Shown: positions 10,812 through 62,756, numbered from the stretch's first letter. The stretch is 64,000 bases of DNA from Cyanobacteriota bacterium (GCA_046045965.1 JBJOKS010000006.1:32001-96000); one strand, 5' to 3'. Made by a program: numbers and translations. The notes: a model not told the origin generated them from the sequence alone.

Positions 10812-11471
10812 ATGTTTATTCTTAAACGCCAGGATGTTGAAATATCAACTATTCAGCACCCAACGCGGGATCAGCAGGTGCCGATCCTCCATTATCAGGG
10901 GCAAACCTTTCGCCTGATAAGTGTTTTCAAAGCCAGTCAAGAGGTCGAAGCTAAAACTCTGTGGCGATCGCTGACTGACAACCGTGGTAAAGCCTGTGTC
11001 TTGCTAGAAGAACCTGAACGCTTTAGTGTTTGGGGAAAAATTCGCTTAGAACAGCTAGACAGTGATACAGGTAGCCATAGCAATACTGAGATTTTGACAT
11101 TAGCTAGTATTTTGCTGTTGCAAGCCGTTTATCTGGATATTGAAGATTTATTAGGTAATCGACAAGCTGCTTTATTTGAAAAAGATATAACAGGGATGTT
11201 ACAGCAAAAACAATTTCCCCAAGCTTCTTCCCCAGAGTCAGCCAAATCTTTGCTAACTGTTGAGCCTTCTCAAATGCCCAAACTGCCTACTTGGCAGGAA
11301 ACTCATGTGATTATTCTCCTGGAAGAACTGCATCGACTAGGAAAAACATATTTTGGTGATACGAACTTTGCACGTCAATCAGAGGATAGGCTACAAGATA
11401 TGGCAGAAGAAGAACTATTAATATTTATCAGTTGGTTAAATCAATCTCCACTCAGTAAACTTTGGCAGTAG
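10812..11471 (+). CDS. Conserved cyanobacterial protein (resembles Npun_F0813 family)
   Basis: MFILKRQDVEI N-terminus recognised from memory. Confidence 0.7.
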   Translation: MFILKRQDVEISTIQHPTRDQQVPILHYQGQTFRLISVFKASQEVEAKTLWRSLTDNRGKACVLLEEPERFSVWGKIRLEQLDSDTGSHSNTEILTLASILLLQAVYLDIEDLLGNRQAALFEKDITGMLQQKQFPQASSPESAKSLLTVEPSQMPKLPTWQETHVIILLEELHRLGKTYFGDTNFARQSEDRLQDMAEEELLIFISWLNQSPLSKLWQ

Positions 11472-11616
11472 CATGGATATTATTTGTTTACTCACAAATC
11501 GTTCAGTGTTACTAATGTTAGTTTTTACCCTGAGAGATTAAGAGTGGCTCAATGACTGGATACCCGATCAATTACGTCAAAAATAGTGCTACAGTGCATT
11601 TACTTAGTGAAAACCT

Positions 11617-12495
11617 ATGAGTAAATCCTACGACAATTCCTACAAATCAAAGACCATTTTCACCACTCAAAAGATAATTTTGATTAGTCTTGGCTGGGCG
11701 CTGTTAGCCTTGTTATACTTTTTGTTGTTCAGCGCCAAAATCCCCGGACCCAATGGCGAAGAAGTCCGTGAAGCTTGGTATTTGCTGGGAACCAATATCT
11801 TTGAAGCTTCAGCGTACTTGGGTGCAAGTGTTCTTTGCTGGCGAAATTGGCAGAGTACCCAAATTATCAGTAGTCGAAAAGTTTGGCTGTTTATCGGCTT
11901 AGGTATGCTTGCCTATTTGATAGGTGGGATAATTTTCGGCTATATAGAAATAGGTTTAGGCGAAGAACCGGATGTGTCCATCGCTGATGTGTTTTTTGTC
12001 ATAACTTATCTCTTCCTGGGTACGGGTATGTCTCTAGCTTTGTTCTCCCGACGCATCAACTTAGAAAAATGGCAGTGGCTAGTTGTGTTCGCAATTGGCG
12101 CATTAGGGAGTTTTGTGGCTTGGTTTATTTCTCAGCAAAATTCAGCCCCCTCAGCGGAATTAGATCCTCTTTTGCAACAAATAAAACTGGTTTTAGATTG
12201 GTTTTACGTAGTTAGTGATGTACTGTTGTTAATTATCGCTACAATCATGTTGTTAGCTTTCTGGGGAGGAAAAGTTTCCCTGTCCTGGAGAATGATTGCA
12301 GCCGCAGCATTTTCGCTTTACATTGCAGATATGTGGTTTAAATATGCCACTAATTATCTTCCAGATTATCAAAGTGGAGACATACTAGAAGTATTCTGGG
12401 TGTTTAGTGGAGTGTTATTTGGTATGGGCGCTGCTCTAGAATACGAAGCATCATTGAGCCTCAAGCGGCGTACCAGTGGACGCAAACGAAGTTAA
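11617..12495 (+). CDS. Polytopic membrane protein, hypothetical
   Basis: About 8 hydrophobic segments. Confidence 0.85.
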   Translation: MSKSYDNSYKSKTIFTTQKIILISLGWALLALLYFLLFSAKIPGPNGEEVREAWYLLGTNIFEASAYLGASVLCWRNWQSTQIISSRKVWLFIGLGMLAYLIGGIIFGYIEIGLGEEPDVSIADVFFVITYLFLGTGMSLALFSRRINLEKWQWLVVFAIGALGSFVAWFISQQNSAPSAELDPLLQQIKLVLDWFYVVSDVLLLIIATIMLLAFWGGKVSLSWRMIAAAAFSLYIADMWFKYATNYLPDYQSGDILEVFWVFSGVLFGMGAALEYEASLSLKRRTSGRKRS

Positions 12496-12513
12496 CAAAT
12501 TTTGGTGTCTACC

Positions 12514-13497
12514 GTGAGAAAATTAACAGATTCAGACAAACAAGAAATTCTCAAGTTATATAGAGAGACTGCCGAAACCACCTCGACTTTGGCAGAACGC
12601 TATGGAGTGAGCAACTCAACAATTAGCCGACTGCTCAAAAGTACCTTACCGGAAGAAGATTACGAATATCTTGTTTCCTTAAAACGCGCTGCTAGAACCC
12701 CTGAAGGCAGAGCGCAAGTAAGCTATGAACAGTTACCGCTGTTGAGTCAACCCACCACAATAGAAACAGCACCTGTAAGCAGCGATGAACCAAGCTTAGA
12801 GTTGCCAAAGGTAGAACCACAGAAACTGGTAATCAAAGAGGTTCTGCCCAAGTCCGAGCAGGTTCCACCCCCAATCCCAGCTATTAGAAGGGTGAAAACG
12901 CGCTCTTCTGCCACTGACAAACCACTATTGCCTGCAACCAAAGAAATAGAGATTGTCAGACACAAGCCCACAGAATTACCCAGCATCAAAAGAACAATTT
13001 TGGAGGATGAAACCCCAGAGGTAAATATCATTGCGACTATGTTCGATGATGATTTGCTGGACGAGTCTGATGATTTGGACGATTTAGACGATGATTTGTA
13101 TGAAGATGAGGAAGATTTTGAAGACGAGGATTTTGAGGAACCTACACCCCTAGTCACAAGACGTAGACCAGGAGAAGGAGCGGTTCAAGTGTTACCCTTG
13201 TCAGTCGCACCTTTGCCTAAAACTTGTTATTTGGTAATTGACCGGTCTGCGGAGTTAATTACTAGACCACTCAAGGATTTTGGCGATTTGGGAGCTATTC
13301 CTACTATTGAAACCCAACAGAGAACTCTACCTGTTTTTGATAACCATCGAGTTGCTAAACGCTTTTCTACCAAGCGCGATCGCGTAATTAAAGTCCCTGA
13401 CAGTAGAATGCTGCATAAGGCTAGTACCCATCTACAAGCCAAAGGCATCACCCGACTGTTAATTGATGGTCAGGTTTACTCTCTGTCTATGGTTTAG
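12514..13497 (+). CDS. Hypothetical protein with N-terminal HTH, acidic tract and conserved C-terminal domain
   Basis: TTSTLAERYGVSNSTISRLL HTH; Asp/Glu-rich linker; start uncertain (12502-12514). Confidence 0.8.
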   Translation: MRKLTDSDKQEILKLYRETAETTSTLAERYGVSNSTISRLLKSTLPEEDYEYLVSLKRAARTPEGRAQVSYEQLPLLSQPTTIETAPVSSDEPSLELPKVEPQKLVIKEVLPKSEQVPPPIPAIRRVKTRSSATDKPLLPATKEIEIVRHKPTELPSIKRTILEDETPEVNIIATMFDDDLLDESDDLDDLDDDLYEDEEDFEDEDFEEPTPLVTRRRPGEGAVQVLPLSVAPLPKTCYLVIDRSAELITRPLKDFGDLGAIPTIETQQRTLPVFDNHRVAKRFSTKRDRVIKVPDSRMLHKASTHLQAKGITRLLIDGQVYSLSMV

Positions 13498-13499
13498 CA

Positions 13500-13832
13500 A
13501 TGTTGCCGCAACCAACTGATGATGGTGTTGTATTGGTGACAACTGCTACTGAGGAAGAAGCCAAAACAATTGCACAAGCTGTTGTGGAAGCTAAACTCGC
13601 AGCTGCCGTCAGTCTGTCACCGGTCTACTCTATTTACAGATGGCAGGGAGAAATTCACAACAAGCATGAATGGCAGTTGATGATGAAAACTAATTTGGCA
13701 TTATTCCCTACATTAGAAGCCAAAATTAGAGAAATTCATTCCTATCAACTGCCAGAAATTATCGCTTTACCTATTTTTAACGCTAGTCCTGCCTACCAAC
13801 AATGGATCAATGAGCAGGTACAAACAGAATAA
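13500..13832 (+). CDS. cutA: Divalent-cation tolerance protein CutA
   Basis: SIYRWQG and HSYQLPEII motifs. Confidence 0.92.
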   Translation: MLPQPTDDGVVLVTTATEEEAKTIAQAVVEAKLAAAVSLSPVYSIYRWQGEIHNKHEWQLMMKTNLALFPTLEAKIREIHSYQLPEIIALPIFNASPAYQQWINEQVQTE

Positions 13833-14176
13833 ATACTTTCATGATTCTTCACTAAGTAAGACCATGTGCTTATTCTTACTGAATAATTGCTGTAAGGAAG
13901 TCAATTAACGTGATTTTTATATTTATTTACCTAACTTTTATATACAAACAGATACAATATTCCCAGTCTAAGTTTGATTTAACTAAATGTTAAGAATTGA
14001 TCACCTAAACCTTAATACACAGTAACAAAACGAAAATATACTATATATATAATATAAACTACATCAAATCTCTGGAACAATACAGGTGACAGGTGGCAGC
14101 TTTAAAACTAGAGTAAAACTTTTAAGAATGAATATCACTGATATTTATTTGTTATAGATAACAGGGAAATTAGTAA

Positions 14177-14794
14177 ATGCCTAGAAATTATAGTGTGAAA
14201 AGACTCGGTAATGGTTTAACCACTGGTACAACCACAACATCGGAGAAATTACTAGGTACTGTCAAATCATGGCAACAGCACTTAGTTGAATCCGTACCCT
14301 TTTTAATCGCTTGCGCTGTGTTTTTAAGCGTCATTAGTTTAAAAAGTCCTATTCTGCTTTTTTGTTTACTAATGGGCAGTTTAATTACAATAGTCTGCCA
14401 GCAAATTGGACAGCAGATAAATTTACCAAAAAAATGGCTAATAATATTACAAATATCGGCAGTATCCATCATTCTAAGTTTATTTTGGGTAGACTTTTTT
14501 GCTGCACCAGCATCTGCTCAATTTTTTGGTAAAGCTGAAAACTTCTTCAAAAATACATTGACACAAGGTACAGATAGCAGTAGTAATCCTCAAACAGCAG
14601 TCAGTTTAATATTCAACGTTTTACGAGCAATTTATTTACTTTATATTGCTGTTTCTCTAATTGGTGTCATTAATGCAGTTCGCAAAGATGAAGATTGGCA
14701 AAGTATTGCTAGAGTTCCGTTGATAGTAGTTGTTGCTGTTACTGTTGCGGATGTCCTCACAGGCTTTGTAATTGGTGATGGTGGCAGCAATTAA
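14177..14794 (+). CDS. VirB2/pilin-like membrane protein of MPF_C-like cluster
   Basis: APASA|QFF cleavage-like site followed by two hydrophobic helices; first gene of the cluster. Confidence 0.6.
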   Translation: MPRNYSVKRLGNGLTTGTTTTSEKLLGTVKSWQQHLVESVPFLIACAVFLSVISLKSPILLFCLLMGSLITIVCQQIGQQINLPKKWLIILQISAVSIILSLFWVDFFAAPASAQFFGKAENFFKNTLTQGTDSSSNPQTAVSLIFNVLRAIYLLYIAVSLIGVINAVRKDEDWQSIARVPLIVVVAVTVADVLTGFVIGDGGSN

Positions 14795-14839
14795 TTTGTC
14801 TGTGTGATCAGATTCAGAAAAGTTTAAGTTCTAGTTTTT

Positions 14840-15217
14840 ATGTCTCAAGAACGTGATCAAGAATTTCGCCCAGTTAATCAAATATTAGGATCACAACCAT
14901 CATTAGGCCCTATTCCCGCTGATCAAATTCTACCCTGGTTGATTATTGTTCTAGTCTCATACTTTGTAATTAATGGAGTTTTTGGAGGACTATTTACAGA
15001 TGATTTTCAACGATGGTTGTGGACAGCATTAATGACAGGTTGGGGAATAGCAACTTGGTGGATTTTAAGTGGTGGTAGGAGTTGGCGATTTTTAAGTAAA
15101 TTTATTGGCGTTCCCACTTGGACAAGAGGTTTTGCTCGTTATCAAAGCTTGTTAGCAATTAACCATGAAGCAAAAAATCGGAAAACAAAACATCGGTATC
15201 GCAGGTCAAGAAAGTAG
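14840..15217 (+). CDS. VirB3-like small membrane protein
   Basis: Two TM segments, overlaps the VirB4-like start, FRPVNQILG motif. Confidence 0.6.
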   Translation: MSQERDQEFRPVNQILGSQPSLGPIPADQILPWLIIVLVSYFVINGVFGGLFTDDFQRWLWTALMTGWGIATWWILSGGRSWRFLSKFIGVPTWTRGFARYQSLLAINHEAKNRKTKHRYRRSRK

Positions 15218-17912
15218 ATTAACACCATTTGAAGATGCTTTACATTTGGCGACAATGCTCCGTATTTCGCTAAATTCTAGAGATATTGGGGCTTATATTC
15301 TCAATAAAGAAAATCAAAAAGATAGGTTTTGCTTTGTCTTTGGGTTTGAATGTCGAGGCATTCATACCACTTTAAGGTCGGAACAAATAGAGACAATTTT
15401 TAATAATATTGAATCAGGTTTAAAAGATATTCCTGAAGGAGAAAAAATGACCTTGCATATAGGGTCATTTAGTTCAGATAAACAACGCCAAAAAGAATTA
15501 GGAGACTTAGTAAAGAAGACACCATCACGGGATATCAAATATTTATTGACGGCAGAAAGAGCGAGAATTCAAGAACTTACTAATTCTGGGATTCGCAAAC
15601 CGAAATTTCTGCGAATTTATGTGACTTATACGATAGAACCTAATGTAACACAAGCTAATGATTGGATTGAAAAATTTTTAGCCAAAACTGAAATTTGGTG
15701 GTTGAAATTTAAAGGAGAATTAGCAGAAGTTCAAAACCAGCGGATTGAAACTTTGATCATCAAAGCTTACCAAGAAGGTTTTTCTCGATGGGAACAATTG
15801 TTATCTAACAAAATGGGGTTAGATGTCAAACCTTTAAATGCTGATGAACTTTGGGAAGAAGCCTGGAGACGATTTAATGATACACCACCTATAGAAATTC
15901 CCCAATTACTTTATTTAGATGAAAATGGACTGCATGAACAAGTTAATTCAGAATTAGCTAGTAGCAAATTGTTGATAGAAAATGTCCACAGTACAACTTT
16001 GTTGATGGAATCTAGTGTACCCTGTGCGGATCGTCGTTGGGTGAATGTGAAAAATCGCTATATTGGAGCAATGACGTTTCTGGAAAAACCGGGAGGTTGG
16101 CCGAATAAATTTTCTCAGTTGCGTTATTTGTGGGATTTATTGGCTAGAGAAACGGTAGTAGATACAGAAATTTTTTGTCAGTTAACGGCTGCAAATCCCG
16201 CATTAGTAAAAACTACTTTACAACGAGTTTTAAAGCAGTCGAATATGACAGCAATGATGGCTCAAGAAAAAAGTAAAACTATTGATGTAAATGCTCAATT
16301 AAAGTTAAAGAAATCCGTAGCAGCACAAGAACAATTATATGAAGGTGCTGTTCCGATATATACGAGTGTAGTTATTTTTGTCCATCGTCCGACTATAGAA
16401 AAATTAGACGAAGCTACAAGATATATTGAAAACTGTTTTCAACGTCCTGCACAGGTAATTAGAGAAGTAGAATATGCCTGGAAAATTTGGTTACAATCTT
16501 TACCAATAGTTTGGGAAGGTTTGTTAGTTAAGCCATTTAACCGCAGACAATTATATTTAACCAGTGAAGTTCCGGGATTAATGCCTTTAATATTAACTAA
16601 AGCTGGAGATAAATATGGCTTTGAATTAATTGCTGAAGAAGGGGGAACACCAATACATTTAGATTTGTTTAATCAACATAAAAATTTAGCTTTGTTTGCG
16701 ACAACTCGTGCGGGTAAATCGGTTTTGGTGTCGGGAATTTTAACTCAAGCTTTAGCACATGGAATTCCTGTAATTGCGTTAGATTTTCCTAAACCTGATG
16801 GGACATCTACCTTTACTGACTATACAGAGTTTATGGAGGGAAATGGAGCGTATTTTGATATTTCCAAACAGTCAAATAATTTGTTTGAACAACCAGATTT
16901 GCGATCGCTCTCTCCAGAAGAACAACGCGATCGCCTTCTCGATTATACTGGATTCTTAGAATCAGCCTTAATGACAATGGTTTTAGGCTCATCCACTGAA
17001 AATCAACTCTTAACTCAAACCGTGCGTTCCTTACTCAATTTAGCCTTAACAGCGTTCTTTGCTGATGCCGGGATTAAGGAGCGATATAAACAAGCAATAG
17101 CTGACGGTTTTGGTAGTGCAGCTTGGCAAAAAACCCCTACTTTACAAGACTTTCTCTATTTTTGTTCTCCAGAACATCTGCAATTAGATTCTATTAGTGG
17201 CAGAGTCGATGATGCACTTAGTCAAATTCAATTGCGGTTACGTTTTTGGCTTTCTAGTCGTGTGGGAAAATCAATTTCTGCACCATCTAGCTTTCCTACA
17301 GATGCCCAACTTTTAGTTTTTGCACTGCGAAATTTATCAGATAATGAAGATGCAGCAGTTTTATCTTTAAGTGCTTATTCAGCCGCTTTGCGACGAGCAT
17401 TAAGCAGTCCAGCTTCGATATTTTTTATTGATGAAGCCCCAATTTTATTTGAATTTGATCAAATATCAGATTTAGTTGGCAGAATTTGTGCCAACGGTGC
17501 AAAAGCTGGAATCAGAGTTATTTTATCAGCACAAGATCCCGATACTATTGCTAAATCTAAAGCCTCATCAAAGATTTTACAAAACTTATCAACGAGATTA
17601 ATTGGTCGTATTCAGCCAGTAGCAGTAGATAGTTTTGTCAACATTTTAAAATACCCCCGTGATGTTATTTCTCGGAATGCGACAGAAAGCTTTTTTCCTC
17701 GGAAAGAAGGTATTTACAGTCAATGGTTGCTAGATGACAACGGCATTTATACATTCTGTCGTTATTATCCAGGTTATGAACAATTGGCTGCGGTTGCTAA
17801 CAACCCCAATGAACAAACTGCTCGTCAAGAAGCTATGTTACATTACAAGGATAAATATGAAGCAATTTCTGTATTTGCTCGGCAGTTAGTAGCTTCGCTG
17901 CGTGGTAGTTAA
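15165..17912 (+). CDS. virB4: VirB4-like ATPase
   Basis: 915 aa; C-terminal P-loop ATTRAGKS, Walker B FFIDEA, ILSAQD. Confidence 0.8.
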   Translation: MKQKIGKQNIGIAGQESRLTPFEDALHLATMLRISLNSRDIGAYILNKENQKDRFCFVFGFECRGIHTTLRSEQIETIFNNIESGLKDIPEGEKMTLHIGSFSSDKQRQKELGDLVKKTPSRDIKYLLTAERARIQELTNSGIRKPKFLRIYVTYTIEPNVTQANDWIEKFLAKTEIWWLKFKGELAEVQNQRIETLIIKAYQEGFSRWEQLLSNKMGLDVKPLNADELWEEAWRRFNDTPPIEIPQLLYLDENGLHEQVNSELASSKLLIENVHSTTLLMESSVPCADRRWVNVKNRYIGAMTFLEKPGGWPNKFSQLRYLWDLLARETVVDTEIFCQLTAANPALVKTTLQRVLKQSNMTAMMAQEKSKTIDVNAQLKLKKSVAAQEQLYEGAVPIYTSVVIFVHRPTIEKLDEATRYIENCFQRPAQVIREVEYAWKIWLQSLPIVWEGLLVKPFNRRQLYLTSEVPGLMPLILTKAGDKYGFELIAEEGGTPIHLDLFNQHKNLALFATTRAGKSVLVSGILTQALAHGIPVIALDFPKPDGTSTFTDYTEFMEGNGAYFDISKQSNNLFEQPDLRSLSPEEQRDRLLDYTGFLESALMTMVLGSSTENQLLTQTVRSLLNLALTAFFADAGIKERYKQAIADGFGSAAWQKTPTLQDFLYFCSPEHLQLDSISGRVDDALSQIQLRLRFWLSSRVGKSISAPSSFPTDAQLLVFALRNLSDNEDAAVLSLSAYSAALRRALSSPASIFFIDEAPILFEFDQISDLVGRICANGAKAGIRVILSAQDPDTIAKSKASSKILQNLSTRLIGRIQPVAVDSFVNILKYPRDVISRNATESFFPRKEGIYSQWLLDDNGIYTFCRYYPGYEQLAAVANNPNEQTARQEAMLHYKDKYEAISVFARQLVASLRGS

Positions 17913-17969
17913 TTAGGTGAGATGTCAAGATAAAAGAATGGTATAAATTCACATAGTAAAAGGGATTAT

Positions 17970-18821
<852 letters not shown>

Positions 18822-18871
18822 GTCTTACTACTGTAATTAATTGACTTTTATCAAAAACCTGTGAACCAAAA

Positions 18872-19921
18872 ATGCGACTTTATATTTTGCAAATTTTTCC
18901 AGAAATAGGTATCAATGAAACTCTGAATAGTGGTACAGAAACTGCCAGAAGTATGGCAGAAAGTTGGGATAATCAATGGTTAGATTTATTACAAAATAAC
19001 ACCAGCAATAATTTATATGGAGCGATCACAAATTTGGGTGTGTTTTTCGCTGTAGGAACTCTATTATTTTTTATGATGCAATGGTTGAAAGATGTTCTGT
19101 ACAGTGAATATTCCCGTCCTATATCGGGTTTGATTTGGCCTTTTATAGTAGTAGTTCTATTAAGTAATACGGGAAATGGTAGTATACTTTCTAGTTTGAC
19201 TTTGGGGGTAAGAAGTTTTATCAATACTGTCAATCAGCAAGTAGTGAATACAGCAGATGCTGATCAAACTTATCAACAAGCTTTAAATATGAGTTTAGCT
19301 GAAGAAGTTGCTGGTTCTTTAATTCGTCCTTGTCAGTCTTTAACAGGTGAACAACAAATCCAATGTTTTGCTAAAGCCAGTGATCAAATAGATGGACTAT
19401 GGCGAGAATATAGAAATTTATATGGTGATAAAGTTTGGATTCAAAGATTAGAAAATCAGGTAATTTCCCTAAAATTTGGCACATTGAATTTATCAGATAC
19501 TACTTTTAATTCCTTGTTGGGGAATACGGCACAGACTAGCATCAAAAACTTTTTAATTTCCTTGCAATATGCTTTTCAAAATTTGCTAGAAGCTACTATG
19601 TTACTGATAGCAGCTTTGGGTCCGATAGCTGTGGGTGCGTCTTTGTTACCTGTGGCTGGAAAGCCGATTTTTGCATGGATAACGGGGTTTCTAGCGGCGG
19701 GAATTGCCAAGATATCATTTAATATCATTGCTGCTGTCACCTCTGCTGTAGTGATTAATGGACCGGCGGAAAATCCTAATGCGAATCCTGATTTAATGTG
19801 GTTCATTATTTTTCTGGGAATTTTAGCACCTGTTTTATCCTTAGTTGTGGCTGGTGCGGGAGGATTTGCGGTTTTTAGTGCTATTAATAATACCGATGGT
19901 TTGGTAAAAGGTAGGATATAA
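18872..19921 (+). CDS. VirB6-like polytopic inner-membrane protein
   Basis: 2 N-terminal and 3-4 C-terminal TM segments around a periplasmic loop with a Cys pair. Confidence 0.6.
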   Translation: MRLYILQIFPEIGINETLNSGTETARSMAESWDNQWLDLLQNNTSNNLYGAITNLGVFFAVGTLLFFMMQWLKDVLYSEYSRPISGLIWPFIVVVLLSNTGNGSILSSLTLGVRSFINTVNQQVVNTADADQTYQQALNMSLAEEVAGSLIRPCQSLTGEQQIQCFAKASDQIDGLWREYRNLYGDKVWIQRLENQVISLKFGTLNLSDTTFNSLLGNTAQTSIKNFLISLQYAFQNLLEATMLLIAALGPIAVGASLLPVAGKPIFAWITGFLAAGIAKISFNIIAAVTSAVVINGPAENPNANPDLMWFIIFLGILAPVLSLVVAGAGGFAVFSAINNTDGLVKGRI

Positions 19922-19923
19922 AT

Positions 19924-20025
19924 CAAGACATTTAAGTTAATAATTTTCCCTTCTCTTTTCTCTGTGTTCTCTGCGTCCTCTGCGGTTAGTTTCCCAAAAA
20001 AATTAGGCTTAACTGAACCGTATTG
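19924..20025. mobile_element. Degenerate Nezha-like MITE
   Basis: Right TIR CTTAACTGAACCGTATTG intact, left TIR 13/18; flanks GGATATAAAT/GCATATAAAT (9/10). Confidence 0.7.
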
Positions 20026-20068
20026 GCATATAAATCTGAATAATATTCAATAGGATGAATATACAAAA

Positions 20069-20893
20069 ATGACAAATTTACTTAACAAGAAAAAACCCAA
20101 AGGGAATATTTTAAATACTTTTGCGATCGCTACTTTCAGTCTGCATTTATTAGTATTATTTTTATTCATTTTGCAAGGTTTAAACATTCGCCAACTCAGT
20201 TTGCGAAAACCGCCTAATTTTGTGCAAATGATTGATGGTCAAACTCCATCTGCTACTGATGACTTAGCCAGAGATCCCGAAGCAATACGCCAATTTATCA
20301 GTAAAACCATGACATCCATGTTTAATTGGTCGGGAACTTTACCAATAAACAATGTTGAAGCATCGACAAAACCACAACCAGATCCAGGAATTACAGTGAG
20401 AACATCACAGGGTGGAAATCAAAAAGTGACTACGAGTAGTTGGGTTGCTAGTTTTGCCATATCAGAAGATTTTCGTAAAGGTTTTTTAAGTGCGATCGCT
20501 CAAATGACTCCACCAGAAGTTTTCTCTAGCAACCTCAGTCAAGGAATGTCCGCAGAATTAGTCATTAAGCGAATTTATCCCCCAGAACAAATAGAAGCTG
20601 GTAAATGGAGAGTGGGAATGGTAGCAGATTTAATTCAAAAAAAACGCGCAAATGATATCAGAACAATAACCCCCTTTAATAAAGATTTATTAGTTCGTGC
20701 AGTAGATTATTATCCCTATCCCCTACCTAATATTAGCACCGATATTCAAAAAGCAATTTATAGCAATCGCGCTCAGAAATTAGAAATTTATGAAATTCGG
20801 AGTTTATGCTTAATAGATAACTATAGTAACCTGAGTGATGATAAATCAAATCCTTGCGGAAATAGCAGAACTTCTGATAGTTTTATCAGATAA
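20069..20893 (+). CDS. VirB8-like bitopic protein 1
   Basis: N-terminal TM, VQMIDG, AIRQFISKTMTSMFNWSG; paralogous to the next gene. Confidence 0.6.
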   Translation: MTNLLNKKKPKGNILNTFAIATFSLHLLVLFLFILQGLNIRQLSLRKPPNFVQMIDGQTPSATDDLARDPEAIRQFISKTMTSMFNWSGTLPINNVEASTKPQPDPGITVRTSQGGNQKVTTSSWVASFAISEDFRKGFLSAIAQMTPPEVFSSNLSQGMSAELVIKRIYPPEQIEAGKWRVGMVADLIQKKRANDIRTITPFNKDLLVRAVDYYPYPLPNISTDIQKAIYSNRAQKLEIYEIRSLCLIDNYSNLSDDKSNPCGNSRTSDSFIR

Positions 20894-20935
20894 ATAAATT
20901 TTAATTACCAATAACCAATCACCAATGACTTAATT

Positions 20936-21628
20936 ATGCAATTAGTAAAATCAGAAACTAAAAAAAGTAGCATCTTACCACTATTAGCTGTAGGAACATT
21001 TGGCTTACATCTCTTTACCCTGCTATTACTTGTATTCCACGGTTCTATGTTACAGGATTTAAAGCGACAATTAACACCCCAAAGTTTAGTACAACTTATT
21101 GATGGTCGTGCTATTAGTGTAGACCCCAAAGCAAATTATGAGCGACATCCAGAGACAATTCGCCGCTTTGTCGGTGAAACCATGACTCTCATGCTTACCT
21201 GGTCAAGACAACAGCCACCACTTACAGTATGGGACATTAGTTCACAACTCTTAGCCTCTGATTTGAAACCAAAATTTCAGTCAGAAATTACTAATTTAAA
21301 TTCTAATAATCAATTTGCCAATATTAATCAAGGAACTGAATATGTATTAGTAATAGAAAAGATTTCTCAACCTACACAGACAGCCAATGGTAAATGGGAA
21401 ATAGAGATGCTTGCCAATCAATTGACTTTTAGCGGTTATAATAATTTGGGAACATCAATTCCGTTTAATAAAAAAATCTTAATCAGAGCCATTGATCAAC
21501 CAAAAACTTCACTACCAACCAAACCACTACCGTGGCATTTAGCAGCTTACCGTCTTGGGGAAGCTAGGCTAGAAATTTACGATATATGTGACATCAAAGA
21601 TAACAAATGTTCTGTAAAATCTAACTAA
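20936..21628 (+). CDS. VirB8-like bitopic protein 2
   Basis: N-terminal TM, VQLIDG, TIRRFVGETMTLMLTW, LEIYDI. Confidence 0.6.
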   Translation: MQLVKSETKKSSILPLLAVGTFGLHLFTLLLLVFHGSMLQDLKRQLTPQSLVQLIDGRAISVDPKANYERHPETIRRFVGETMTLMLTWSRQQPPLTVWDISSQLLASDLKPKFQSEITNLNSNNQFANINQGTEYVLVIEKISQPTQTANGKWEIEMLANQLTFSGYNNLGTSIPFNKKILIRAIDQPKTSLPTKPLPWHLAAYRLGEARLEIYDICDIKDNKCSVKSN

Positions 21629-21695
21629 GCAATAAACTCTAAGATTCCTATCTGAGTTTGAACAGATTACTTACACATTTACACATCTATTCTCT

Positions 21696-21728
21696 TCCCT
21701 CCTGCCTTCTGCCTCCTGCCTCCTGCCT
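21696..21728. repeat. STRR (CCTCCTG)n upstream of the likely VirB10 start
   Basis: Visible in sequence. Confidence 0.8.
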
Positions 21729-21762
21729 TGCCATAACGACAATTTTTAACGCCTACCTACTT

Positions 21763-23349
21763 ATGACTTCCTATTCACTTGAACCACAATTTTCTACACA
21801 ACCTCTCATCGAACCCAATGCTAATAAATATCAATTGGAAGTAGATACTAGAGATTGGGAATCTCAAATGGCCAGATTGGTTGGTTTTGAAGAAGAATCC
21901 CCCCAAGTCAACATTGACGCACCAGAAGCAGAAATAGACATCTTACAACCGTCCCCATCTCAGCCGCAAGAAGTTCCAACAGAACAACATCTTTCAGCTA
22001 ATCCCTTTGCTAAGTTAACCTTAGTAGGTAGTGCTACCTTGACCGTAGTGCTATTAGCTGGTGGTTTTCTATCGCAGATTATGAGTACCAGCAATCAAAA
22101 GCCCAAAAATAATCCTGTTTCTTCAACAGCAGCATTAGCACCAAAAATTGAACCCAGCCAGCAAAATTTAGCGCAGGAAATAGAGACTTTAAAAACAAAA
22201 TTGGCGCTTGCTGAACAAGCACAGGCTGTAACAGCAGCACAACAAAATTTGAGAAATAGAGCAACTTCACCGGTGGAAACTCCACGGCTAAACAACAGAA
22301 CACCAATACCTGTGCAAACTGCTTCTGCACCCCGCGTAGTCACAGTTGAGCGCATCATTGAAAAACCCTATTCTCCATTACCATCTGTCCCACCAGTTGC
22401 TGTTGTCCCGACCGTTGCACCATCAAACGACCCTCCAGAGGCCAACCCAGACACCCAACCATCTCCACCAGCTCCACCTGACCCCCTCGAAGAATGGACA
22501 AAATTAGCCAAGTTAGGTAGCTACGGTCAGGTTTACACTACTGGTCAATCTGGTGTGAATATCGCTCAAGTAGCTCCTCTTAATAATACTAATGTCAGCA
22601 AACAGCCAACCAACTTCAACCCGGAACCACCACCATCAGAGCCAGAAATTCTAGTCAGTCAAGCACAACAGCAAAACTCGAAATCAGTCAAAGTAGGAAC
22701 TAGTGCCAAAGCTGTATTGCTAACAGCTATATTTGGGGAAACGACAAAAGGAAGGAATAATGATCGGAATAATCAAAAAGATGAAAATACTGATGTATTT
22801 GTAGTGCAGTTGAAAGAACCACTAAAATCTCTGGATGGTGCGATCGCTTTACCTGCTAAGACTGAATTATTAACTCAAATTCGTTCTATTTCCGAACGAG
22901 GACTATTGCAGTTGGATGTAGTCAAAGTGATATCACAAGACAACGGCCAGCTTCAAGAAAAAAGCTTACCCAACAATGCAATTACTATTCGCGCTTCCCA
23001 AGGTAGACCGCTAGTAGCAAACAAATTTCCTAATAATGGCTCATCCATAGCCGGAATGGATGCCGGACTATTTGTTTTAGGAGGTGTCAGTAGAGCCGCA
23101 GAGTTATTAAATCGTATTGACACCCAAGTTACAACCAATTCTGGCAGCACTGTTGTTACCAACTCTAACGGCCAACGTAATCTAGCAGCGGGAATTGTGG
23201 AAGGTGGTTTAAAATCTATAGTTCCGCAAATTACCCAACGTAATCAACAAGCAATTTCTCAACTTATCCAACAAAGTAATACTAATGTTTGGTTGCTACC
23301 CGCTGGTCAAGAAGTGGAAATATATATTAATCGCACCATGCAATTTTAG
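21763..23349 (+). CDS. TrbI/VirB10-like protein
   Basis: TM, coiled coil, Pro-rich linker, C-terminal beta domain ending LPAGQEVEIYIN; ATG 21763 preferred. Confidence 0.7.
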   Translation: MTSYSLEPQFSTQPLIEPNANKYQLEVDTRDWESQMARLVGFEEESPQVNIDAPEAEIDILQPSPSQPQEVPTEQHLSANPFAKLTLVGSATLTVVLLAGGFLSQIMSTSNQKPKNNPVSSTAALAPKIEPSQQNLAQEIETLKTKLALAEQAQAVTAAQQNLRNRATSPVETPRLNNRTPIPVQTASAPRVVTVERIIEKPYSPLPSVPPVAVVPTVAPSNDPPEANPDTQPSPPAPPDPLEEWTKLAKLGSYGQVYTTGQSGVNIAQVAPLNNTNVSKQPTNFNPEPPPSEPEILVSQAQQQNSKSVKVGTSAKAVLLTAIFGETTKGRNNDRNNQKDENTDVFVVQLKEPLKSLDGAIALPAKTELLTQIRSISERGLLQLDVVKVISQDNGQLQEKSLPNNAITIRASQGRPLVANKFPNNGSSIAGMDAGLFVLGGVSRAAELLNRIDTQVTTNSGSTVVTNSNGQRNLAAGIVEGGLKSIVPQITQRNQQAISQLIQQSNTNVWLLPAGQEVEIYINRTMQF

Positions 23350-23361
23350 CTGTAAACAACT

Positions 23362-24033
23362 ATGAAACATCTTCATTTGACAACAAAAACTTCAAATAAG
23401 ACCAATTTGAAAAATGATAGCGGCAAATGGATTTATAGACTCTATCTGCATAATTTTCTTCCCCATCGAGAATCTAAAATCCAAAATCCAAAATCGTATT
23501 ATCCTCATTTATTACCTCTGGCTTCCCTGGTGTTCTCAGTGGCCATGTTATTGTTGGCGGGTCGTGCTGTAGCTAATAATGCTGTTCTCCGTTCCCTGTT
23601 TTCCTGTCAAGCGCAGGGTTTATCAGGAATTGTACCAACTATTGAGGTTTCCTATCAACAAGGTACAAATTTAAGCTTTCTTCCTGCTGGTGAAACCATT
23701 AGAAAAGTTTGGTTAAATGACCCGTCACAGGTGACAATGGATTTTGATGGACCGATGTGTACGCAGTTCGGAGAAGAACCCAAACTGAGTGCAGGGGACT
23801 GTAAAAACTCAGCAGCAAATGTCATTCAACTGCGACGAATTGAAAGGCTAAAAATTCCGGGATTACCCAAAATGGACAACACACTTTTAACAGTAATTAC
23901 CGAAAGGCAAGGAAAAAACAAGCTCTATACTTTTAGAATACTATATAAAGATGTTGCGCCTGGGTATCACACGTTAGCTATTTATCAAGATTCATCTTCT
24001 AATGGGGCAAATTGTGCCAGAAGTGCATATTAA
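23362..24033 (+). CDS. VirB9-like periplasmic protein
   Basis: Signal-like helix, GTNLSF..GETIRKVWLNDPS, LLTVIT..KLYTFRI. Confidence 0.55.
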   Translation: MKHLHLTTKTSNKTNLKNDSGKWIYRLYLHNFLPHRESKIQNPKSYYPHLLPLASLVFSVAMLLLAGRAVANNAVLRSLFSCQAQGLSGIVPTIEVSYQQGTNLSFLPAGETIRKVWLNDPSQVTMDFDGPMCTQFGEEPKLSAGDCKNSAANVIQLRRIERLKIPGLPKMDNTLLTVITERQGKNKLYTFRILYKDVAPGYHTLAIYQDSSSNGANCARSAY

Positions 24034-24178
24034 TTCATATTACCTGAATCACAGAAAACTCAGTAGATGGCATCAATAGCAACCTGGACTTGAGCAGATG
24101 TTAAAATCATCTGGAACATTTCTACCCGCTATTCGACTTACAATTTAACAGTAGAACTTCTAATATGTGGTGAGAATT

Positions 24179-24715
24179 ATGAAACGCTTTCTTAAGTCTT
24201 TGGTAACAATTTCTGCTTTATCTTCCTTGGTAATTGCTCCCGCATTTCTGTCAGTTGGTAAAGCTGCTGCCGAAACCCAAAAAGGCACAGATGCCAGTTA
24301 TATTGGTGTTGGTGTAGCTGCTGGTGTTACTAATGGTGGACAAAACAACGATGCTGCTACCTTTGGTGGCAATGTCACAGGTCGTTTAAAATTGGGAAAT
24401 ACACCTTTTTCTGCACGGGGTAATGTCCTCTGGAGCGATGAAACCTCTGCTATCATTCCTGAACTTTCTGTAGATGTACCTATTGCTAATAAAACCAATG
24501 TCTTTGTTACTGGTGGCTATTCTTTTGTAGAGTCAGATGGTAGACCAACACCTTTGGGTAACAGAGATTCCGTAGTTGTAGGTGCTGGGGTAGAATCTGA
24601 AGTGACTAAAAACTTCCTCGTCTACACTAACGCTAAACTTGGACTGGGTGCATACCAAAATAGTGATGCTTCTGCTGTTAGCATCAATGGTGGTATCGGC
24701 TATCGCTTTAAGTAA
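24179..24715 (+). CDS. Outer-membrane beta-barrel protein
   Basis: Signal peptide, amphipathic beta strands, C-terminal GIGYRFK. Confidence 0.8.
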   Translation: MKRFLKSLVTISALSSLVIAPAFLSVGKAAAETQKGTDASYIGVGVAAGVTNGGQNNDAATFGGNVTGRLKLGNTPFSARGNVLWSDETSAIIPELSVDVPIANKTNVFVTGGYSFVESDGRPTPLGNRDSVVVGAGVESEVTKNFLVYTNAKLGLGAYQNSDASAVSINGGIGYRFK

Positions 24716-24718
24716 GTA

Positions 24719-24781
24719 GGTGATTGGTGATTGGTGATTGGTGACTGGGTAAAAATGACTAATAACTAATGACCAATGACA
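24719..24781. repeat. STRR (GGTGATT)n and (AATGACY)n
   Basis: Visible in sequence. Confidence 0.85.
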
Positions 24782-25052
24782 ACTGCTCAGGTACTTGTTG
24801 ACATAATACATATTTATAGCTATATGTCAACAGATAAAAACAAAAATATTTTGTGTTTATTTACATCTATCTACTGAACTTGCTGGTTTTGTTAAGTGTG
24901 AAATCACTAATGAAGCCGGCTTTTCACTGTGTTAAAATTAAGTTATTATTCATAATTCCAAGTGGATTTTTGGTGTTCTACCAGCAGAAAAGGTATAGCT
25001 AAATTCCTAATTAGACTTTAACTGCTGCATTATTGAGAAACATACTACTGTA

Positions 25053-26966
25053 ATGGTTAACTCTGCTCCTTCTTCCGTTAACAACCGTAAACCTTCCAAA
25101 GTCGAAGGTATCAAAGAAAATAGTAATTTTTTGCGTGAACCTGTAGCTACTGAAATTCTTGAGGATACAACCCATTTTAGTGAAGATGCGATCCAAATTC
25201 TCAAGTTTCACGGGTCTTATCAACAGGATAACCGTGATAATCGTGTCAAGGGACAGGAAAAAGATTACCAAATGATGCTGCGGACAAAAAACCCTGGTGG
25301 GTTAGTACCACCTCAGCTATATTTGGCTTTAGATACATTGGCGGATGAATATGGTAATCATACGTTAAGAGCTACTACCCGCCAAGGTTTTCAGCTACAT
25401 GGGATTTTGAAAAAGAATCTCAAAGCAGCGATCGCCACAATTGTCAAGAATTTGGGTTCTACTTTGGGTGCTTGTGGTGATATCAACCGCAACGTTATGG
25501 CTCCCCCCGCACCATTTAAAAATCGTCCAGAATATCAGTATGCTTGGGAATATGCCCAAAATATTGCTGATTTGCTTTCACCCCAAACCGGCGCTTATTA
25601 TGAAATTTGGTTGGATGGGGAAAAAGCCATTAGTGCTGAAGAACACCCAGATGTGAAAGCAGCACGACAGAAAAATGGGACTGGGACTATTATTCATGAT
25701 TCCGTAGAACCAATCTATGGTACTCATTATATGCCCCGCAAATTCAAAGTTTGCGTAACCGTTCCCGGTGATAATTCTGTAGATTTGTATTCCCAGGATT
25801 TAACATTGGTAGTAATGACCAATAAAAAAGGGGAATTACAAGGTTTTAACGTCTTTGCTGGTGGTGGTTTAGGAAGAACTCACAATAAGGAAGAAACCTT
25901 TGCGCGAGTCGCTGATCCAATTTGCTATGTGGCAAAGGATGATGTTTATGATATCGTCAAGGCGATTGTTGCTACTCAAAGAGATTATGGCGATCGCACC
26001 GACAGAAGACACGCCAGATTAAAATATTTAATCAATGATTGGGGTGTAGACAAATTCCGCACTCAAGTGGAAGAATACTTTGGTAAAGCTGTCGAACCGT
26101 TTAAACAATTACCGAAATTCAAATATCAAGATTATTTGGGATGGAATGAACAAGGGGACGGTAAACTGTTCTTGGGTATTTCCATTGATAATGGTCGGGT
26201 AAAAGATGAAGGTTCTTTTCAACTCAAAACCGCTTTACGGACAATAGTTGAACAGTTTAACCTGCCTATTCGTCTCACAGGCAACCAAAACCTGATTTTT
26301 TACGATATTTTACCAGAAAACAAAGAAGCGATTCAAGAAATTTTGGATAAATGTGGTGTTATTGCTGATCCTAGTCAAATCGCAGCCTTAACCCGCTATG
26401 CTATGGCTTGTCCCGCTTTACCTACCTGCGGTTTAGCAATTACCGAGTCAGAAAGGGCAATTCCTGGTATTTTAGAAAGAATCCGCGCTTTATTAGATAA
26501 AGTGGGTTTACAAAAAGACCATTTTGTGGTAAGGATGACAGGATGCCCTAATGGTTGCGCTCGTCCTTATATGGCAGAATTAGGTTTTGTAGGTAGCGCA
26601 CCAGAATCTTATCAAGTTTGGTTGGGTGGTTCACCAGATCAAACGCGGTTAGCTCAACCTATCATTGAAAAGCTGCACGACAATGACATCGAAAGCTTTT
26701 TAGAGCCGATTTTTGTCTATTTTAAAAAGTTCCGCAAGGGTAAAGAGAGTTTTGGTGATTTTTGCGATCGCATTGGTTTTGATGCTATCCGCGAATTTTC
26801 AGCCACTTACACACCTGGAGAACCTAGCAGCAGCGGAAAATCTCGTCATCGGGTGAGTTTACGGGATGATGTTTATGAGCAACTCAAGGAAACCGCAGAA
26901 AAGCTGAATAAACCTATGACTGAGTTGGTACACGAAGCTTTGGATAAGTATTTCCAAAGTCTGTAG
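25053..26966 (+). CDS. sir: Ferredoxin-dependent sulfite reductase
   Basis: [23 protein letters not shown] and [11 protein letters not shown] siroheme/4Fe-4S motifs. Confidence 0.96.
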
Positions 26967-26974
26967 AACGATAT

Positions 26975-27022
26975 TCTCACGCAAAGGCGCAAAGACGCAA
27001 AGTTTTTAGTTTTTGCGTGAGA
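26975..27022. repeat. Palindromic dispersed repeat TCTCACGCAAAGGCGCAAAG...TTTGCGTGAGA
   Basis: Same family as the mrr-flanking arms; another degenerate copy at 29484-29539. Confidence 0.75.
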
Positions 27023-27171
27023 TTTACAAGCAATATTAAATCTTTAGGACTTACAGCAAATATCTCCAAAACTCTGTGTTCTCTGTACCTCTGTGGTTCG
27101 TTACAATTAAGACATAAAAGACACAAAGAGAACAAAAGGGAAAAAATTTTTGATCAAATCATCGTTAAGAC

Positions 27172-27200
27172 TTGACAAGTCGCAAATATTATTTTATGCT
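27172..27200 (+). promoter_or_regulatory. Sigma70-type promoter
   Basis: TTGACA-N17-TATGCT. Confidence 0.55.
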
Positions 27201-27381
27201 ATATGTTATGAGTGGGAAAGTGTGCGCCCATATATAACGGGTTTTTAATTATCAACATTATTATTTGCGATCGCATCCTGTAAATCTTTTATTTTTGACT
27301 TTTGACTTTTGACTTCCCGAAGGGTGTCCTGATGCTGACAAAAAATGTTAAATTTGCTATATATTGCTTTAAGGTTCAGGT

Positions 27382-27861
27382 ATGACGATCAGAACAATAC
27401 CATCTCTTCAACCTAACCTGTATGAAGAAGATTATTATTTATGGATAGAAACTACTCTTCAACAAATACAAAATCAAGATATTGAAAATTTAGATTGGTC
27501 ACATTTAGCAGAAGAGATAGAAGCTTTGGGAATTGAACAAAGACGAAAAGTAGAAAGTTATCTCAAGCAACTATTAATTCATCTTCTGCTTTATTGTTAT
27601 TGGGAAAGTGAAAGAGAATTTTGTCAACGGGGTTGGAAAAATGAAATTGCTAATTTTCGTGATGAATTAGAATTTTCTTGTCGTTCTAAAACACTATATA
27701 ATTATTTTTTGAGTTGTTTAGATTCTGTTTATCTCAAAGCGAGAAAACAAGCGATTCAAAAAACAGGTTTACCGAGTGTAACTTTTCCTGAACAATGTCC
27801 TTTTACTCCTGAAGAAATTTTAAATAGTGATTATTTTCCTGATTCTGACAAAAGCGTATAA
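27382..27861 (+). CDS. DUF29 family protein
   Basis: LYEEDYYLW, LDWSHLAEEIEALG, FPEQCPFT motifs. Confidence 0.9.
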   Translation: MTIRTIPSLQPNLYEEDYYLWIETTLQQIQNQDIENLDWSHLAEEIEALGIEQRRKVESYLKQLLIHLLLYCYWESEREFCQRGWKNEIANFRDELEFSCRSKTLYNYFLSCLDSVYLKARKQAIQKTGLPSVTFPEQCPFTPEEILNSDYFPDSDKSV

Positions 27862-27865
27862 TAAT

Positions 27866-59506: not shown

Positions 59507-59593
59507 AAACAAGGATGAAGAATAAAGGATGAATGATTAATGCAGGATTAAGGCTGAAGCATGAATGATAGTTCATACTTCAAACTTCGTCCT

Positions 59594-62500: not shown

Positions 62501-62740
62501 AGAGCCTAGAATTTCTTGATCATCTGTTAAATGGAACACGTTCTCATATTCTGCTTTGGCGATCTCGAATTGCTGTAAAACATAGTAGATGTGACCCCGC
62601 AACAGATGAGAATTGGGGTCATTTGGTAAGTTATGCACCGCTTGGTCTATTAAAGTAGCGGCGGCTTCATAATCCCCTTCTGTATAGGCTGTTAGTGCCT
62701 GCTGATATTTTGAATTGCGATCATCTATATTTACTACCAT
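59594..62740 (-). CDS. hmpD: Methyl-accepting chemotaxis protein (HmpD/PilJ)
   Basis: N-terminal TPR, acidic region, [42 protein letters not shown] before ATG 62740. Confidence 0.9.
61929..62157 (-). repeat. In-frame 78-bp tandem repeat, about 3 copies
   Basis: Units start at 61929, 62007 and 62085. Confidence 0.95.
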
Positions 62741-62756
62741 TTCCTCCCTCCCAACT

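Follow-up and report, generated by a model that had tools for sequence, protein, structure and literature searches.

The window analysed here is a stretch of 64,000 nucleotides from the genome of Cyanobacteriota bacterium (GCA_046045965.1; JBJOKS010000006.1, 32001-96000), and the subject of this report is a cluster of nine genes in it (g1 to g9) that resembles a type IV secretion system (T4SS) of the mating-pair formation class MPF_C. As an earlier note on the window had described, the nine open reading frames (ORFs) are co-oriented, free of internal stop codons, and placed between cutA on one side and a gene for an outer-membrane protein (OMP) followed by sir on the other. The features of the locus are listed in Table 1, together with the similarity of each protein to its counterpart in the reference cluster (plasmid pCC7120alpha) and the ratio of non-synonymous to synonymous substitutions (dN/dS).

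Table 1. Features of the cluster, its borders and other parts of the window
Feature	Position	Strand	Length or match	Description	pCC7120alpha counterpart, identity	dN/dS
g1	14177-14794	+	205 aa	VirB2/TrbC-like pilin candidate, long leader	201-aa protein, 36%	0.12-0.30
g2	14840-15217	+	125 aa	VirB3-like small membrane protein; 53-nt overlap with start of g3	99-aa protein, 40%	0.09-0.19
g3	15165-17912	+	915 aa	VirB4-family ATPase	VirB4, 53% over 914/915 residues	0.05-0.07
g4	17970-18821	+	283 aa	exported protein, VirB5/TrbJ position; fast-evolving	238-aa protein, 27%	0.13-0.44
g5	18872-19921	+	349 aa	VirB6-like polytopic inner-membrane protein	383-aa protein, 33%	0.06-0.14
g6	20069-20893	+	274 aa	VirB8-like bitopic protein, paralogue 1	264-aa protein, 33%	0.11-0.24
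g7	20936-21628	+	230 aa	VirB8-like bitopic protein, paralogue 2; marker of chromosomal clade	same 264-aa protein as g6, 25%	0.08-0.23
g8	21658-23349	+	563 aa	VirB10/TrbI-like protein	TrbI/VirB10, 24%	0.21-0.46
g9	23362-24033	+	223 aa	exported protein, VirB9 position	246-aa protein, 39%	0.17-0.27
Leader	13978-14176	+		non-coding leader/promoter candidate; travels with cluster		
STRR-like array	18758-18795		CAGGAGT x5.4	perfect heptamer array, 3' coding end of g4		
STRR-like array	20903-20926			heptamer array		
STRR-like array	21698-21728		CCTCCTG x4.4	heptamer array, annotated 5' end of g8		
STRR-like array	23471-23495		AATCCAA x3.6	heptamer array, annotated 5' end of g9		
cutA	13500-13832	+	PF03091, E 2e-34	left border gene, outside system		
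OMP beta-barrel gene	24167-24715	+	PF13505, E 8e-8	right border gene, outside system		
sir	25053-26966			3' of OMP gene		
Antisense ORF	14188-14472	-		within g1		
Antisense ORF	19576-19926	-		within g5		
Mrr-type gene	2114-3025			restriction endonuclease		
HTH_3 + Peptidase_M78 gene	32646-33743			ImmA/IrrE-like		
HTH_3 + Peptidase_M78 gene	50546-51754			ImmA/IrrE-like		
Kinase and MCP genes	54617-62800	-	1631 aa and 1068 aa	chemotaxis-like pair		

Identity of the nine proteins

Gene identities were assigned from BLAST homology to the published MPF_C model, the pCC7120alpha locus (NC_003276.1, 213098-225425), together with topology and one fold match; seven of the nine proteins had no match at all in Pfam and NCBIfam, and none was identified at curated cut-offs. 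All nine proteins are collinear with counterparts in the reference locus (24-53% identity, E 1e-11 to 0), which bears out the MPF_C-like gene set proposed in the earlier note. The eight window proteins other than VirB4 all have a BLAST homologue there, in the same order, with g6 and g7 both matching one protein. The topologies predicted from hydropathy agree with those of VirB2, VirB3, VirB5, VirB6, VirB8 and VirB10.

For g3, NCBIfam matches to TraC-F (TIGR02746, E 2.6e-15) and VirB4_CagE (TIGR00929, E 6e-12), which miss the equivalog cut-offs by a wide margin, are accompanied by a trace of DUF87 in Pfam; the Walker A (ATTRAGKS, residues 512-519) and Walker B (FFIDEA, 753-758) motifs are invariant in 20/20 orthologues. 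With profile matches and both motifs intact, g3 is assigned to the VirB4 ATPase family and looks active. The protein g6 carries a single N-terminal transmembrane (TM) segment, and its AF2 model (pLDDT 69) retrieved VirB8-family periplasmic domains as nine of the top ten Foldseek matches in the PDB. These comprised 4lso (the best, E 4.8e-4), TraM, DotI, TrwG and Brucella VirB8, with TM-scores of 0.55-0.64 normalised to the target, or 0.55-0.70 for a list that includes CagV. The modelled fold and the bitopic topology place g6 in the VirB8 family. The topology of g7 is the same, and it is regarded as VirB8-like because it is a paralogue of g6 (about 30% identity).

The Pfam profile TrbI (PF03743) matches g8 over profile positions 2-188 of 188 at E 1.4e-6, but its score of 28.7 bits falls short of the cut-off of 35; the VirB10 homologue of pCC7120alpha scores 53.5 bits, above the cut-off, and the VirD4 of that plasmid matches PF10412, PF12696 and PF02534. 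One TM segment (about residues 117-141) and a proline-rich stretch were found in g8. Its alignment to the orthologue in G001, a congener of the window genome (G000), begins at residue 36, and its true start probably lies near 21763, since an array of short tandemly repeated repetitive (STRR) type occupies the annotated 5' end. The start of g9 probably lies downstream as well, since another array stands in its annotated 5' end and its orthologues have 171-207 aa. Both arrays are therefore probably intergenic, and the longest-ORF starts of the two genes wrong. The array in g4, in turn, encodes a SQES/GVRSQES tail that is missing from the orthologues, which have 255-268 aa in many genera.

The remaining proteins are less distinctive. 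In g1, four hydrophobic segments were predicted, with an AxA-type site (..APASAQ, residue 112) ahead of a stretch of about 90 aa that holds two TM helices; this layout would suit a candidate pilin with a long leader, and an Atlas search gave small conjugation membrane families as weak leads (score 0.75). One or two TM segments are present in g2, which is 71-92% identical across genera. An N-terminal signal-like segment is the sole such feature of g4 (38-81% identity across genera), for which the Atlas search returned a TrbJ-named cluster (score 0.88), as a lead only. At least five hydrophobic segments were predicted in g5, with a mean column identity of 70% over 20 orthologues and invariant Cys154 and Cys165. 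In g9, 69 columns are invariant in 15 orthologues; a wide structural search with its poor AF2 model (pLDDT 51) returned nothing beyond generic Ig-like and coiled-coil folds (Z up to 4.4). Profiles built from orthologue alignments of g4, g6 plus g7, g9 and g5 found no relevant match among all PDB sequences. The public records of eight orthologues read 'hypothetical protein', save for two in UniRef that bear an automatically assigned TraD-domain name.

In the g1 leader, a Shine-Dalgarno-like AGGGAAAT precedes the ATG in most of 20 loci, and an extended -10-like motif of the type CATGTTAAATTGTGAT lies 5' of g1 in many genera and is degenerate in the window. The leader block from its first position onwards is conserved 5' of g1 in six genomes (G000, G001, G014, G022, G019 and G017). 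Scans were uninformative for promoters (22 sites against 35.9 expected, not above shuffled sequence) and for terminators (8 sites against 7.1 expected). The antisense ORFs within g1 and g5 recur in several genera and are most simply a by-product of the conservation of the sense genes.

A chromosomal clade conserved across the family

A first sample of 41 relatives, 24 of them in the same, heterocyst-forming family, was searched with VirB4. The matches formed tiers, the top one at 77-96% identity in 20 of the 24 family genomes (partial in G020) and further ones at 51-64% and 30-40%; no match of the top tier was found in G002, G005, G018 and G003, the last of which is only 80% complete. In the same genomes, the identities were 77-96% for Sir and 84-97% for AspRS, so that VirB4 is as conserved as housekeeping proteins, whereas Nostocales plasmid alleles of VirB4 reach 60% identity or less. 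In PLSDB, 131 of 134 matching plasmid records lay below 60%, with pCC7120alpha at 53%, and the best match (75.5%) was an 879-kb Gloeothece replicon.

Gene content was compared in 19 loci of the top tier and in 20 more that belong to the other tiers or to genomes not in the first sample. The order g1-g8 is the same in 19/19 top-tier loci, one of them being cut inside g8 by a contig end. Two VirB8-like genes are present in the top tier, and a 398-aa gene and VirD4 are missing from it; the conjugative tiers have one VirB8-like gene, then VirB10, VirB9, the 398-aa gene and, where the locus reaches far enough, VirD4. A sister pair (G126 and G313, 68% identity) has two VirB8-like genes together with a divergent, upstream homologue of the 398-aa gene. 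In G126 (L098:13826-16405), this homologue lies inside an 859-aa ORF, divergent and 5' of g1, which belongs to no Pfam family.

In a VirB4 tree of 40 rows, the 24 top-tier rows form one branch (support 99), with G126/G313 as sister (99), apart from the rows of plasmids and integrative and conjugative elements (ICEs), including pCC7120alpha; the tree is of a quick kind, and its outgroup branches were flagged as long. Nesting among plasmid or ICE alleles, which the earlier note had named as an outcome against its reading, was thus not seen, and the chromosomal clade is monophyletic. The g3 protein falls in the cyanobacterial VirB4 clade together with plasmid and chromosomal rows, as expected of MPF_C; since the tree holds no non-cyanobacterial VirB4, this speaks to nearness to the reference and not to a class boundary.

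With g7 as marker (E<=1e-50), the clade was detected in 301 of 360 family genomes, in 294 of the 352 of high quality, and in 51 of 67 genera, nearly always in a single copy. The distribution is thus broad, but neither universal nor even: in the two genera apparently nearest to that of the window, the marker was patchy (1/19 and 2/7). Outside the family, only rearranged copies were seen, in G243 and in Gloeothece. The copy in G243 (L097, 80%) has an inverted g4-g8, with separate g1-g2-g3 and g4-g8 blocks, and g9 was not detected; the same two blocks are found on plasmid Cy782201 of Gloeothece verrucosa PCC 7822 (148977-157561; L153), with no g9-sized gene annotated adjacent. The cluster-bearing 879-kb Gloeothece replicon is typed as non-mobilisable.

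Relaxed selection, another outcome that the earlier note had named against its reading, was not seen: dN/dS by the method of Nei and Gojobori, from seven or eight pairs per gene, was 0.05-0.46 and indicates purifying selection on all nine genes. By way of a separate observation, two chromosomal, conjugative-type VirB4 copies in G013 (60-62%; C1:1910306-1912999 and 2086430-2089120) contain one to three stop codons and have the look of integrated elements in decay, whereas the copy of the chromosomal clade in this genome is intact.

No genes for transfer were found, in agreement with the earlier note. The window's own genome (92.2% complete, 107 contigs) has one VirB4, no match to the coupling ATPase family PF02534, and no match to the relaxase families PF03432, PF01076 and PF08751 (MOBH, MOBC and MOBT were not searched); no coupling ATPase was found among the window proteins scanned. 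Searches of this genome by tblastn with MobV, VirD4, the 398-aa protein, the integrase and the MobA-like protein of pCC7120alpha also gave no match. The cluster is therefore not a conjugative system as defined by a T4SS, a coupling protein and a relaxase, for neither of the latter two turned up in these searches. Among five other cluster-bearing genomes, neither alpha-type VirD4 nor MobV was found in four that are at least 98% complete (G021, a single contig, and G011, G024 and G009), where other relaxase families were not searched; in G001, both are present, on other contigs and beside a distant second T4SS.

The counterpart of the cluster could be traced in Nostoc sp. PCC 7120. The g3 orthologue is all0469 (BAB72427.1, 87% identity), on the 6,413,771-base chromosome, and the g9 orthologue is BAB72421.1, six accession numbers below and presumably all0463. 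In the supplementary table of Flaherty et al. (2011; PMC3141674), all0463-all0471 are nine adjacent genes, all termed 'unknown protein', with lengths from all0463 to all0471 of 640, 1621, 793, 922, 1153, 898, 2758, 478 and 718 bases that mirror g9 to g1. Because gene numbering and lengths match, all0471-all0463 would appear to be the counterpart of g1-g9. Within the same data, reads per kilobase per million (RPKM) were 0.09-6.8 throughout, and the operon was partly induced after nitrogen step-down. The values rose from 0.70 to 4.09 and 3.88 for all0469 and from 0.58 to 3.89 and 3.99 for all0468; all0463 went from 1 read to 8 and 11, and all0464 rose about 2-fold, while all0465 was unchanged (-1.2-fold) and all0471 changed 1.4-1.9-fold (PMC3141674). 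Simm et al. (2015; PMC4365693, Table 6) place all0463 with those genes of unknown function whose orthologue groups contain heterocyst formers only, and a FurC box is predicted upstream of all0465 (PMC10406281). Of sampled sequence words from the window cluster, a fraction of 0.79 occurred in one run labelled metatranscriptomic and 0.28 in another; this is not evidence of transcription, as an RNA run may hold DNA.

The locus and its history in the window's genus

Only the window genome and G001 have the cluster between cutA and the OMP gene. In G018, a sister genus with 93-96% housekeeping identity, there is no cluster, and a gap of about 90 bp separates cutA from an ADP-ribosylglycohydrolase gene, after which come the OMP gene and sir; comparison with this empty site places one border of the cluster no more than about 30 bp from the cutA stop and the other about 25 bp past the g9 stop. 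The congener G002 (L152:3440-3620) has deleted cutA together with the cluster, so that at most about 25 bp lie between the stop of a helix-turn-helix (HTH) gene and the 3' end of the glycohydrolase gene. In other genera, the cluster stands at other sites, and their flank genes (Mur ligase, lnt and gyrA) map to contig C43, 15-27 kb, of the window's own genome. The OMP gene flanks the cluster solely in the window's genus.

Two side observations concern this site. In G001, g9 and the OMP gene are separated by the ADP-ribosylglycohydrolase gene (PF03747, E 1e-77), which G018 and G002 have in the same place (L013:14005-14958; L093:16130-17200); it was lost from the window, where the gap between g9 and the OMP gene is just 133 bp (24034-24166). 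About 15 kb of other DNA lies between the OMP gene and sir in G002.

Species and cluster phylogenies disagree. A tree of Sir, AspRS and RpoB gave (G018,(G000,(G001,G002))) with supports of 100/100, 100/99 and 99/96; this group joins G006/G021/G007 (83/98) and stands apart from (G019,(G014,G022)). The tree of eight cluster genes unites G000 and G001 with G014 and G022 (100/100), and then with G019 and G017 (100/100). In approximately unbiased (AU) tests, the species-like placement was rejected with the cluster data (p 4.6e-57), and the cluster-like placement with the housekeeping data (p 6.7e-4 and 7.5e-3); the groups were named after the trees had been seen, and the species tree comprises three proteins. 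Synonymous divergence (dS) between G000 and G014 was 0.69 for the cluster and 0.93-1.50 for three housekeeping genes; the values for the cluster and for housekeeping or flank genes were 1.21 and 1.09-1.80 between G000 and G006, and 0.41 and 0.18-0.43 between G000 and G001. The sequence of about 200 bp upstream of g1 is also common to the group of G014, G022, G019 and G017.

Vertical inheritance at a fixed site in the window's genus was rejected, given the site found empty in G018, the deletion in G002 and the conflict between trees. The ancestor of G000 and G001 probably received the operon, leader included, from a related genus within the family, with later loss in G002. The alternative is ancestral presence with losses, plus a misleading three-gene species tree. 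The long residence at the locus that the earlier note had proposed is not supported, given the empty site in G018, the deletion in G002, the other sites in other genera, and the conflict of trees. Nor do the repeats it had cited tell of residence at this locus. The five sites of highly iterated palindrome (HIP1) are at the positions given in the note (16901, 16927, 20123, 20492 and 22840), and four heptamer arrays of STRR type are present in the cluster; the five HIP1 sites are part of 33 in the window, at a density of 0.51/kb in the cluster and 0.52/kb window-wide, with 0.13 expected by chance. This density shows only a stay in HIP1-bearing genomes, and any Nostocaceae donor would have given the same.

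The core-chromosome setting noted earlier was found again at the present site. Among the 17 proteins scanned at 10812-28684, there was no relaxase, coupling ATPase, integrase or transposase, and 21 further window proteins were housekeeping or ordinary ones (e.g. aspS, aroA, thyX, dcd and rsmE). The flanks of the cluster differ from genus to genus, and include genes for a Mur ligase as well as gyrA, lnt, prs, ndhH, rsmH, leuA, ruvC and lgt; integrase, transposase, relaxase and coupling families (E<=1e-5) were found in 0/59 flank proteins. These 59 were scanned from 88 listed flank ORFs, and those left out were mostly ORFs of 100-135 aa and the flanks of G001, which repeat those of the window. 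Elsewhere in the window, there are two genes with HTH_3 and Peptidase_M78 domains, an Mrr-type restriction endonuclease gene, and a hybrid CheA-like kinase (Hpt, H-kinase_dim, HATPase_c, CheW and Response_reg) beside a HAMP-domain methyl-accepting chemotaxis protein (MCP).

Interpretation and relation to known systems

We read the nine genes as a machine of the MPF_C T4SS lineage that has been retained (exapted) by the host, and that is neither a conjugative nor a decaying element; we give this reading a probability of roughly 0.6. Retention by the host is proposed because of the purifying selection and the wide conservation. The domesticated trans-envelope machine of the earlier note therefore stands in part: the intact genes, the missing transfer genes, the selection and the conservation fit it, and its supposed long stay at this locus does not.

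VirB4 would power the assembly of an inner-membrane platform of the VirB3-like, the VirB6-like and the two VirB8-like proteins; the VirB10-like and VirB9-like proteins would form a core spanning the envelope, and the VirB2-like pilin with the VirB5/TrbJ-like exported protein a surface filament. Without a coupling protein, cytoplasmic DNA or effectors would not be recruited, and the machine would therefore act between the periplasm and the cell surface. The functions favoured are those of a contact or adhesion pilus, of a ComB-like channel that takes DNA through the outer membrane, or of the two combined.

A number of points weigh against this reading. The favoured working, i.e. a pilus or channel independent of a coupling protein, is derived from gene content alone. 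The labels VirB2, VirB5, VirB6 and VirB9 are positional, assigned from gene position, topology and a published profile comparison (PMC4027160) in which MPF_C contains a VirB9/TraV homologue. The g9 gene was found in 14 of 19 top-tier loci, one of the five others being cut by a contig end. The system is dispensable, for 59 of the 360 family genomes do not have the g7 marker, among them the congener G002, the sister genus G018 and nearly all members of one genus (1/19 with it). In PCC 7120, expression is very low, with 1 to 11 reads behind the fold changes of all0463. The window's own assembly is 92.2% complete and in 107 contigs, and its missing part could hold a relaxase or coupling gene. The inference of transfer into the genus is moderate, because the AU groups are post hoc and the species tree rests on three proteins. 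The missing VirB11 says nothing on a ComB-like role, because conjugative MPF_C relatives also have no VirB11 homologue in the stretch seen.

The rival explanations differ in what the machine would serve. The cluster could be a helper mating apparatus, a chromosomal channel used in trans by mobilisable plasmids or islands with their own relaxase and coupling protein. Its genes are collinear with those of pCC7120alpha, which is typed as conjugative, it has itself passed from genus to genus, and G001 has both the cluster and MobV-like and VirD4-like genes elsewhere; furthermore, 26 of 424 cyanobacterial plasmids are predicted to be mobilisable, 24 of them from Nostocales, with a relaxase and without VirB4 or VirD4 (PMC8600333). 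Yet the cluster is intact in four nearly complete genomes in which no alpha-type VirD4 or MobV was found, the window's own genome likewise has no match to either, and many genomes own complete conjugative MPF_C sets besides; strong purifying selection on all nine genes in 301/360 genomes is hard to square with occasional service to plasmids, and we regard this explanation as distinctly unlikely. A machine of nitrogen starvation or heterocysts, for export or transfer across the envelope of differentiating filaments, would account for the near confinement of the clade to the heterocyst-forming family and for the heterocyst-former-restricted group of all0463 (PMC4365693), and low overall expression is expected if few cells express the operon. 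The nitrogen response is carried by small read counts, however, and other genes of the operon change little (all0465 and all0471); moreover, 16 of 67 heterocyst-forming genera are without the cluster, which is therefore not needed to make heterocysts, and rearranged relatives exist outside the family (G243 and the Gloeothece plasmid). This, too, appears unlikely.

A third explanation, that a conjugative element or plasmid once integrated and that its functionless remains are now in decay, would fit the failure to find a relaxase, coupling protein or integrase, the absence from the close relatives G002 and G018, and the variable site between genera. The intact frames of all nine genes in the window and of g1-g8 in all 19 top-tier loci speak against it, as do the low dN/dS, the invariant ATPase motifs, the presence in 51/67 genera, and the contrast with the stop-bearing copies in G013; an ICE remnant is extremely improbable, and was rejected on the grounds of selection and conservation. 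In a bolder form, the host-retained machine would be a conjugation-derived nanomachine of heterocyst-forming cyanobacteria (all0471-all0463), domesticated once near the base of the family, marked by VirB8 duplication and loss of the coupling protein, and now serving filament biology; we consider this rather unlikely as it stands. If true, it might be a device for export or cell contact induced by nitrogen starvation, or a ComB-like route of DNA uptake, and the latter would explain how chromosomal operons move between genera without mobile-element genes.

The nearest known system is the MPF_C cluster of pCC7120alpha, with the same gene order, one-to-one homology and the same VirB4 lineage. In contrast to the plasmid with one VirB8-like gene, the window cluster has two, and it is without the 398-aa gene, VirD4, MobV relaxase, MobA-like gene, AAA ATPase and integrase; it is chromosomal, its VirB4 is just 53% identical, and it is conserved across genera as housekeeping genes are.

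Other systems invite comparison of working rather than of descent. For ComB of Helicobacter pylori, a chromosomal T4SS for DNA uptake, no relaxase, coupling protein or VirB11 is known; it has VirB2-, VirB3-, VirB4-, VirB6-, VirB8-, VirB9- and VirB10-like parts, belongs to another VirB4 lineage, and has a VirB7-like part and no known VirB5-like gene. The functional inventory is the same as in the window cluster, which is a likeness of possible working and not membership. Trw of Bartonella and Ptl of Bordetella are T4SSs that serve adhesion or export and work without VirD4, at the surface or from the periplasm; they are proteobacterial MPF_T systems with a VirB11 homologue that act in host interaction, and the pilus genes of Trw are amplified. 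This amplification has a parallel in the pilin-like gene kept in the window cluster and in its fast-evolving gene at the VirB5 position, whereas the duplicated part in the window clade is VirB8 and the hosts are free-living phototrophs.

In the published record, ComB is mentioned as an exaptation without relaxase (a MOBless system) in PMC3548315, where it is also stated that nothing is known experimentally on MPF_C. Only MPF_I and MPF_T are known to include T4SSs for protein secretion, according to bioRxiv 10.1101/031039. Cyanobacteria are among the bacteria with T4SSs lacking a nearby relaxase, for which non-conjugative roles were suggested (Guglielmini et al. 2011; PMC3158045); the accessible text on such 'MOBless T4SS' does not describe the gene content of the present clade, its VirB8 duplication, family-wide conservation, selection or expression. 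Our literature search found no description of the chromosomal clade, and in the texts it covered only all0465 (FurC box, PMC10406281) and all0463 (PMC4365693) appear; the supplements of PMC8600333 and PMC3548315, which may list chromosomal VirB4 genes, were outside this search.

New here are the VirB8 duplication as a clade marker, the prevalence of 301/360, the selection on each gene, the PCC 7120 locus tags with their expression, and the history of gain, loss and relocation in the window's genus. The pattern there offers a clear example of a large operon of the chromosome that passes from one genus to another with neither an integrase nor a transposase. With this clade, exapted T4SSs would be known from a third lineage, one that about five in six of the heterocyst-forming species sampled possess, and the genetically tractable Nostoc sp. 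PCC 7120 makes the role of relaxase-less T4SSs in free-living bacteria testable by knock-out.

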